NCBI RefSeq assembly: GCF_003334255.1
Contig: NZ_QOWU01000197.1
Source of the DNA: Escherichia coli
Lineage (GTDB): Bacteria; Pseudomonadota; Gammaproteobacteria; Enterobacterales; Enterobacteriaceae
Length of the DNA stretch: 702 nt
Reading direction: 5' to 3' (one strand)
In this document: positions 1-336 of the stretch, in pieces
Position numbering within the stretch: the first letter of the stretch is position 1
Layout: each line of letters begins with the position of its first letter
Notes under the pieces: generated by a model
The model's input: only the letters and a program-made list of their open reading frames with translations
The model's database searches: none
Told to the model about the DNA's origin: nothing
Program-made: the position numbers and the translations under genes

Positions 1-336
1 GGCAAATATGAGCCAGCGGGGATTGTCCACCGCGGGGAGTTTGTCTTCACGAAGGAGGCAACCAGCCGGATTGGTGTCGGGAACCTGTACCGCCTGATGC
101 GGGGCTATGCGGAAGGGGGGTATGTGGGTGCTGCCGGAAGTCCGGCGCAGATGCGGCGGGCGGAAGGTATTAATTTTAATCAGAACAATCACGTGGTGAT
201 TCAGAACGACGGTATCAACGGACAGGCCGGGCCGCAGCTGATGAAAGCGGTGTATGAGATGGCCCGTAAAGGTGCGCAGGATGAGCTCCGGCTGCAGTTG
301 CGTGATGGCGGTCTGTTATCGGGGAGCGGGCGATGA
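1..336 (+). CDS. H: Tail tape measure protein, C-terminal fragment (lambda gpH-like); 5' end lies upstream of the window
   Basis: Frame 1 is open with no stop from base 1 to TGA at 334-336. It translates as GKYEPAGIVHRGEFVFTKEATSRIGVGNLYRLMRGYAEGG...NNHVVIQNDGINGQAGPQLMKAVYEMARKGAQDELRLQLRDGGLLSGSGR*. The ORF track shows only 97-336 because it starts at the first ATG, which is internal. From memory this closely resembles the C-terminus of lambda gpH, and it sits immediately upstream of an M-like gene as in lambda. No search was run. Confidence 0.85.
   Translation, partial: GKYEPAGIVHRGEFVFTKEATSRIGVGNLYRLMRGYAEGGYVGAAGSPAQMRRAEGINFNQNNHVVIQNDGINGQAGPQLMKAVYEMARKGAQDELRLQLRDGGLLSGSGR

Follow-up and report, generated by a model that had tools for sequence, protein, structure and literature searches.

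The window, that is, the whole 702-nt stretch of Escherichia coli DNA that was analysed, covers the 3' end of a tail tape measure gene H, gene M and the start of gene L (Table 1). On the plus strand, frame 1 has no stop codon between nt 1 and the TGA at nt 334-336 and reads GKYEPAGIVHRGEFVFTKEATSRIGVGNLYRLMRGYA-EGGYVGAAGSPAQMRRAEGINFN-QNNHVV. As in lambda, the genes follow one another as H-M-L and overlap at their stop and start codons, the ATG of M overlapping the stop codon of H (ATGA, nt 333-336) and M and L sharing the sequence TGATG (nt 660-664). Residue i of the H fragment corresponds to lambda gpH residue 742 + i. The nearest relatives were E. coli prophages and temperate phages including a prophage of strain SCU-106 (99.6% identity), phage PhiR12_2_star (99.3% identity) and many Stx-converting phages (94-97% identity), and a match to the window was present in 3,654 of 5,426 complete E. 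coli genomes, or about two thirds.

Table 1. Position of genes, protein segments and sequence features in the 702-nt window
Feature	Position (nt)	Strand	Description and evidence
Gene H, 3' end (tape measure)	1-336	+	last 111 codons and TGA stop (334-336)
Gene H fragment equivalent to lambda gpH aa 743-853	1-336	+	alignment with PDB 8iyk chain H, E = 2e-49
43-aa motif GKYEPAGIVHRGEFVFTKEATSRIGVGNLYRLMRGYAxGGxVG	1-129	+	invariant columns, tblastn, dN 0, entropy 0.014
Exchanged cassette, approximate extent	60-250	+	L139 compared with L159
Patch as first described	112-180	+	aa 38-60, lambda gpH aa 780-802; 49.3% identity, highest entropy
G6 homopolymer, left patch edge (GAA GGG GGG TAT)	115-120	+	sequence
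Hypervariable linker core, AAGSPAQMRRAEGIN	130-174	+	aa 44-58, Gly/Ala/Ser/Pro-rich; core unalignable, length variation, allele C breakpoints
Start of tail-tip-linked C-terminal module (F-x-QNNHVVIxNDGxNG)	175-225	+	conserved island; L204 junction
Predicted helix, equivalent to lambda gpH 818-849	226-321	+	PDB 9e7m chain Ha; AF2 helix
Gene M (109 aa, distal tail protein)	333-662	+	ORF list, PHROG 14 and 21806 (minor tail protein), annotated neighbours
Gene L, start	662-702	+	ATG overlaps M stop codon; sequence, annotation of L002, L003 and lambda

The full-length H of the SCU-106 prophage (L003, 857 aa) was used to stand in for the complete gene and scored 358.8 bits over aa 476-817 against TIGR01541 (tape_meas_lam_C), which has a curated cut-off of 104.75 bits; PF06791 and PF09718 were also matched, and the patch described below lay outside every Pfam domain of this protein. 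The 111-aa fragment encoded in the window scored 74.1 bits alone (profile positions 263-332), which is under the cut-off solely because the fragment is partial. Judged from the full-length relative, which passes the cut-off, the H of the window is a tail tape measure protein of the lambda family. A search for Rfam matches at E values up to 1 and for promoter-like sites found none in the window, and the one terminator-like hairpin (minus strand, nt 32-14) was at chance level. An overlapping open reading frame in frame 2 (nt 107-199) was rejected as merely an out-of-frame reading of H.

A preliminary description of this DNA had singled out a patch in the C-terminus of H as more diverged from lambda than the sequence on either side. 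This was borne out in an ungapped alignment with lambda J02459, in which the patch was 49.3% identical (35/69 differences) as against 91% for nt 1-111 (10 differences), 72% for the rest of H (nt 181-333) and 77% for gene M. In a sliding comparison over the whole window, divergence was highest in the 69-nt stretch beginning at nt 110, and 35 differences were reached in 0.02% of site shuffles (p = 0.0002). Fisher tests gave p = 1e-6 for the patch against the rest of the window, 7e-10 against the upstream flank and 0.0014 against downstream H. The alignment of the core (nt 130-174) with lambda was at the level of shuffled sequence (z = -0.27). When the whole of H in the lineage of the window was compared with lambda, two strongly divergent segments only were seen, namely the patch and a larger one at aa ~320-400.

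The excess divergence of the patch was mainly non-synonymous. Nei-Gojobori estimates against lambda were dN 0.66 and dS ~1.8 for the patch, dN 0.20 and dS 1.3 for downstream H, dN 0.14 and dS 1.08 for gene M and dN 0 and dS 0.45 for the upstream flank, so that dS exceeded 1 in the patch, downstream H and M. The upstream flank was also considered as a recent recombination tract and this was rejected, given the dS of 0.45 against lambda and a pS of 0.35 with a pN of 0.001 within allele A (see below). These values indicate that the conservation of the flank reflects constraint at the protein level.

This upstream flank is part of a 43-residue motif (G1 to G43) in which 27 columns are invariant when lambda, phi80, T1-like tonijn, Klebsiella KP36 and diverse prophages are aligned, and the motif was located about 110 residues from the C-terminus and directly upstream of an M homologue in all of the aligned phages. 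In a tblastn search of 50,697 phage records, hundreds of siphophages including phi80, T1-like Drexlerviridae and Klebsiella Webervirus shared window aa 1-34 at 75-94% identity, with the homology ending before the patch. Between G43 and the following strand (V-x-AP or QNNH) the homologues had about 13 to 27 residues and no conserved column, the difference in length after G43 reaching up to ~14 residues before strand and helix resume. The strand-like island after the linker reads QNNHVVIxNDG, with V-x-AP-V-S-V in others. The linker thus measured accepts insertions and deletions among homologues, the wider alignment having been built from homologous fragments of less than 200 aa of which some were frameshifted (P0031, P0061, P0070).

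Downstream of the patch, PDB 9e7m chain Ha matched residues 77-107 of the query (E = 1.3e-8), so that by sequence the C-terminal helix of the window is homologous to the helix of lambda gpH (818-849) that binds the gpI trimer. In lambda these residues form a three-helix coiled coil that rests on the gpI tripod and are the only part of gpH in the cryo-EM models (PMC10721106, PMC11101478, PMC12617516). Cleavage of lambda gpH near aa 690-710 yields gpH* and gpHC; gpHC 690-817 is without resolved density, and gpH*, not gpHC, is the candidate channel (PMC12617516). By analogy with these structures the patch would fall in the part of gpHC that lacks density, 16 residues before the resolved helix, and the density missing over the patch in the three lambda studies could also be caused by symmetry mismatch. 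The patch was rejected as the site of cleavage from gpH to gpH*, which is located in the Gly-rich region near aa 690-710, 70-90 residues upstream. An AF2 monomer model, poor overall (mean pLDDT 53.7), was most confident for residues 11-40 (pLDDT 64-70) and dropped under 50 over most of residues 42-73, and a helix was predicted at residues 78-101. With a model of this quality, the low values over the patch are weak evidence.

Relatives of the window were collected from IMG/VR and comprised 134 unique 702-nt sequences encoding 51 distinct C-terminal proteins, some of the sampled contigs being possibly defective prophages. The loci were recovered through exact matches to a 29-mer of the conserved motif or to a 20-mer of gene M, or through similarity at the protein level, a sampling that biases the proportions of alleles among the loci; counts in the 5,426 complete genomes are free of this bias. 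Mean entropy among the 51 proteins was 0.71 bits in the patch, 0.014 upstream and 0.46 downstream, and the 23-residue stretch with the highest entropy began at aa 38, which is nt 112, the very position at which the preliminary description had begun the patch. Conserved flanks had been proposed on both sides. The downstream side was less uniform than this and was conserved only in islands (QNNHVVIxNDG, KAVYxMARKG and RDGG), with secondary peaks of nucleotide diversity at nt 211-255 and 271-315.

The patch sequences formed discrete alleles rather than a continuum, with seven clusters at a 6% nucleotide threshold of which two were dominant. Allele A, the window type, reads AEGGYVG[GA]AGSPAQMRR[AT]EGINFN (in short GxAGSPAQMRRxEGINF) and allele B, the lambda type, reads ATGGYVGTPGS[ML]ADSRSQASG[TK]FE (also given as TPGSMADSRSQASGTF), while rarer forms were C (ATGGYVGGTGSPAQMRRSEGIRFE) and D. 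A-type patches were found at 90% identity or more in 1,990 of the 5,426 complete E. coli genomes at 4,113 places, and B-type patches were found in 2,678 genomes at 3,339 places. By a rough count at least 1,014 genomes carried both (1,990 + 2,678 less at most 3,654) where independence would give ~983, and there was no sign that A and B exclude each other in genomes. The pN/pS of the patch was 0.12 within A, 0.26 within B and 0.81 between A and B, with pN of 0.015-0.022 within classes and 0.45 between them; these ratios, like the Fst values below, are descriptive and uncorrected for recombination and shared ancestry. The pN/pS within alleles was no higher than that of the structured neighbours. 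As each allele is conserved internally, the patch is an old polymorphism and not a site of continuing rapid change.

Mosaic recombination or adaptation of the injection step had been offered as the cause of the variable patch. The first of these stands, as recombination of the patch between prophages was seen directly. One locus (L139) is lambda itself here, with no differences over nt 1-249 and one over nt 250-690, and a second (L159) differed from it at 64 of 190 positions in nt 60-249, at 4 of 1,060 to the left and at 20 of 1,100 to the right (64/190 inside and 24/2,160 outside; Fisher p = 1e-54). L159 therefore has a window-type cassette of ~190 nt in a lambda M/L background, and the same pair carries a second exchanged cassette at gpH aa ~355-398. 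Two other near-identical pairs had differences confined to cassettes at nt 120-300 or 150-330. Allele C followed the lambda type over nt 91-129 and returned to it in the stretch TTTGAG, with a core like that of the window, which places breakpoints at both edges of the core (nt ~129 and ~170). L204 has a tape measure body of the unrelated GEAGPEAILPL family that is joined to a 100% lambda C-terminus at the equivalent of window nt ~173. This junction identifies the right edge of the patch as a module boundary, with the last ~55 codons going with the lambda-type tip.

A combination table had patch alleles recombined variously with upstream and downstream alleles, and A and C occurred in all four combinations with the C-tail classes and likewise with the upstream classes. 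Fst between carriers of A and B was 0.02-0.13 across the body of H, rose over the conserved motif to 0.4-0.9 from nt -50, was 0.5-0.86 through the end of H, M and L, and beyond L was lower in K and 0.4-0.5 in I. From this profile the conserved motif is where crossovers usually separate the body of the tape measure from the tip module, whose first and least constrained segment is the patch.

Taken together, the patch is probably a variable flexible linker of lambda-family gpHC, and its alleles are swapped by recombination in ordinary lambdoid mosaicism. The linker would join the 43-residue motif to the last ~53 residues, whose helix, as in lambda, would dock as a trimer on the gpI plug within the tail tip, and would probably act as a flexible tether between the two. 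Its length and exact sequence may matter little across the wider family, hence the divergence beyond that of its neighbours. In E. coli prophages it persists as two main old alleles plus intermediates, with purifying selection holding each allele steady, and it would have diverged deeply between two tip-module lineages. Homologous recombination in the conserved flanks moves the patch, sometimes as a cassette of ~175-190 nt and more often jointly with the downstream end of H, M and L. The last ~60 residues of the TP901-1 tape measure are essential for tail initiation and deletions just upstream are tolerated (PMC5099701), an analogy that supports the tether. Purifying selection within alleles (pN/pS 0.12-0.26) is not predicted by a passive tether and counts against it, as does the high frequency of both alleles.

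Balancing selection could instead account for two deep alleles that are both frequent. The patch may be a specificity determinant of the ejected gpHC that balancing or frequency-dependent selection keeps polymorphic, the recogniser being a host envelope factor, an injection-targeting defence (for example SNIPE) or a prophage superinfection-exclusion protein, in which case phages would benefit from swapping alleles. We regard this as unlikely even though the alleles are both common, are conserved internally, differ from each other at about half of the non-synonymous sites and are exchanged as a small cassette in a pair that also differs in the cassette at aa ~355-398. Tape measure proteins are moreover known targets of defence and of injection factors, as is reportedly also shown by work on HK97 (Cumby et al. 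2015). Against it, no escape or host-range mutation has been reported at the patch (the sites being A304V, aa 300-400 and, in Bas14, aa 100-150), the patch is in gpHC whereas the proposed channel is gpH*, and the pN/pS between alleles stays below 1. The co-occurrence of A and B at or above the expected number of genomes gives no hint of exclusion, and the variation in linker length among wider homologues points to tolerance. A broader form of the argument, in which the patch and the cassette at gpH aa ~355-398 are together a balanced polymorphism of the ejected tape measure, is distinctly improbable; here envelope defences, superinfection-exclusion proteins or alternative entry factors would recognise two short surfaces and prophages would escape by cassette exchange, not by point mutation.

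Linkage to the tip module could also mean that the patch co-adapts with variants of M, L and I and that its alleles mark tip lineages, through contact for example with the lumen of gpM or gpL or with the N-terminus of gpI (which has no density) during tail initiation. The patch allele is indeed strongly linked to the H C-terminus, M and L (Fst 0.5-0.86), which is not the case for the H body (0.02-0.13); every lambda-type patch observed was followed by lambda-type alleles downstream, and the C-terminal ~55 codons travel with a lambda-type tip even on an unrelated body. Physical linkage suffices for such an association, however, and the association decays with distance into K. Window-type patches also occurred with both M classes and with a lambda-type C-tail and M, L159 has the window-type cassette in a lambda M/L background, and the L204 junction leaves the patch on the left of the module boundary, so that tip matching does not require the patch; co-adaptation is on these grounds quite unlikely. 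A reading in which the patch, free of constraint, diverged neutrally for as long as its flanks did and without recombination would fit the dS above 1 over the patch, downstream H and M, where long divergence and low constraint could yield a near-random patch. It is a very poor candidate, being contradicted by cassette-only differences in backgrounds of 98-100% identity, the mosaic allele C, all four combinations of A and C with the C-tail classes and with the upstream classes, and purifying selection inside alleles. A compensated frameshift or sequencing error is hardly credible; the G6 run at the left edge has +1 and -1 variants in two relatives, but the patch of the window is unlike any alternative lambda frame, a gapped nucleotide alignment of the core is at the shuffled level, and copies of the allele with at least 90% identity occur at 4,113 places across 1,990 complete genomes. 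The comparison of lambda frames and the 4,113 genomic copies refute the artefact reading.

Injection depends on inner-membrane proteins that include ManYZ for lambda and PtsG for HK97. A role of the patch in this dependence, the second half of the earlier suggestion, is without support because the reported determinants in lambda types are at gpH aa ~300-400. These are A304V and aa 300-400 of PhiR68.2, which are tied to the use of ManYZ and to SNIPE susceptibility (10.1101/2025.11.03.685801), and they lie ~400 residues upstream of the patch in gpH*; the second swapped cassette (gpH aa ~355-398) is inside this region. A tape measure determinant in Bas14 is at aa 100-150, and mutations affecting inner-membrane dependence have also been reported in genes V or H without positions. 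No mutation or variant that changes dependence was reported at gpH aa 780-802 in the literature found, where positions were given for lambda types and Bas14. The precedent of HK97 does not transfer to the patch by homology, the tape measures of HK75, HK542 and mEpX2 matching the GEAGPEAILPL type.

Tape measures of this type (HK97, Fels-1 and phi458) have an analogous layout of conserved motif, short Gly-rich linker, F-x-x-Q/N..I-N-NDG, helix and RDGGLFSGGGR. Their last ~55-69 residues are homologous to the lambda types, and in L204 identical to lambda, whereas the body and conserved motif upstream of the linker are unrelated to lambda gpH. For this reason an alignment of lambda, HK97 and N15 can inform on the last ~55 residues only. 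Lambda gpHC (about aa 690/710-853) is closer, having the same H-M-L position and last 111 residues of the same length without gaps. The first 37 residues of the fragment are identical to lambda gpH and the gpI-binding helix is homologous by sequence, but the patch differs at 15 of its 23 residues, its core cannot be aligned at the nucleotide level and the remaining C-terminus has a dN of 0.20. The segment of gpH at aa ~300-400 resembles the patch in its strong divergence from lambda and its cassette exchange in L139 and L159; it differs in being part of gpH* and in an experimental link to injection (10.1101/2025.11.03.685801). The TP901-1 tape measure also has a docking module after a tolerant stretch and is a functional parallel from a Gram-positive phage with no sequence homology (PMC5099701).

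The exchange of segments at conserved boundary sequences is textbook behaviour of lambdoid phages, of which the patch is an unusually small intragenic example; a literature search found no earlier specific description of the exchange of this patch. Mosaic cassettes are a general feature of lambdoid genomes described in the literature of Hendrix and Casjens, and the patch shares with them discrete alleles, sharp breakpoints in conserved flanks and reassortment with neighbours. Its unit is ~45-190 nt and intragenic, not a whole gene or domain, and one of its boundaries is the junction of a family-wide motif and a tip-specific module. If the patch is indeed an exchangeable linker, it would be of little functional weight in itself and would mark the end of the family-wide motif and the start of the tail-tip-specific module, and recombination would be able to exchange stretches of only ~50-190 nt within an essential structural gene. 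L159 would then be a natural lambda with the other allele and a ready test of this gpHC segment in assembly or injection. For annotation and phage engineering, the patch would likely be a tolerant site in the tape measure C-terminus with two conserved flanks suited to recombineering.

The length of the G run at nt 115-120 differed in 2 of 15 distinct relatives with the exact sequence context, being G5 in PhiR12_2_star (L002) and G7 in L130. The H gene of PhiR12_2_star is annotated as split.

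The alleles of the variable patch, window-type or lambda-type, showed no linkage with the body of the tape measure upstream and strong linkage with the end of H and with M and L, and the shift between the two states spans the conserved 43-residue motif. The switch in linkage was mapped to window positions -140 to +130 (relative alignment coordinates). Because linkage changes from none to strong across it, the motif is marked as the place where the crossovers that separate the tape measure body from the tail-tip module habitually fall. Lambda-type M is also used by two loci (L204 and L250) whose tape measures belong to the unrelated GEAGPEAILPL family of phi458, Fels-1 and HK97-like tape measures. 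In L204 the switch to 100% lambda sequence occurs at window-equivalent nt ~173, where the shared sequence at the junction is only ~5 nt, while L250 is a mosaic that is lambda-identical at nt ~207-240 and from nt 301 onwards and divergent in between.

Features of the tape measure region and their coordinates
Feature	Coordinates	Strand	Remarks
43-aa motif	window 1-129		0 amino-acid changes relative to lambda, dS 0.45
G6 homopolymer (GAA GGG GGG TAT)	window 115-120		left edge of patch
Terminator-like hairpin with T-rich tail	window 32-14	minus	one found
Tape measures of L204 and L250	window-equivalent nt 1-336	reverse strand of loci	
Divergent H segment	L003:2720-2965 (L003, 99.6% identical to window)		gene H nt ~960-1200, aa ~320-400; outside window

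Within the loci carrying the window-type patch the motif had a pN of 0.001 and a pS of 0.35. It is kept in the tape measures of phi80, T1-like phages and Webervirus, always ~110 residues from the C-terminus, and is located in a structurally unresolved part of gpHC, the C-terminal cleavage fragment of lambda gpH. An AF2 prediction suggests a fold consisting of a beta-hairpin and two helices. A tblastn search of the phage collection with the 111-aa query gave a match list that included records of phages of Campylobacter (21) and Arthrobacter (15), surprising hosts for the motif. The hairpin is on the antisense strand inside the coding region, and terminator-like hairpins in the window were not above chance (shuffled mean 0.3, sd 0.7).

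The G-run varied in length in two of the fifteen distinct relatives sharing its context, with G7 in the locus L130 and G5 in PhiR12_2_star, a plaque-forming phage isolate in which H is annotated as two CDS. The deviating lengths may stem from sequencing error or from genuine slippage, which would cut off the tip-docking end.

When H of the window's lineage was compared with that of lambda, just one segment besides the patch was strongly divergent, at aa ~320-400, with 20-50% identity and indels. Between a locus that matches lambda in the window region (L139) and a near-identical prophage locus (L159) the difference was a discrete cassette at aa ~355-398, the gene being otherwise identical. In position the divergent segment corresponds to aa 300-400, the part to which ManYZ dependence and SNIPE susceptibility have been tied (10.1101/2025.11.03.685801).
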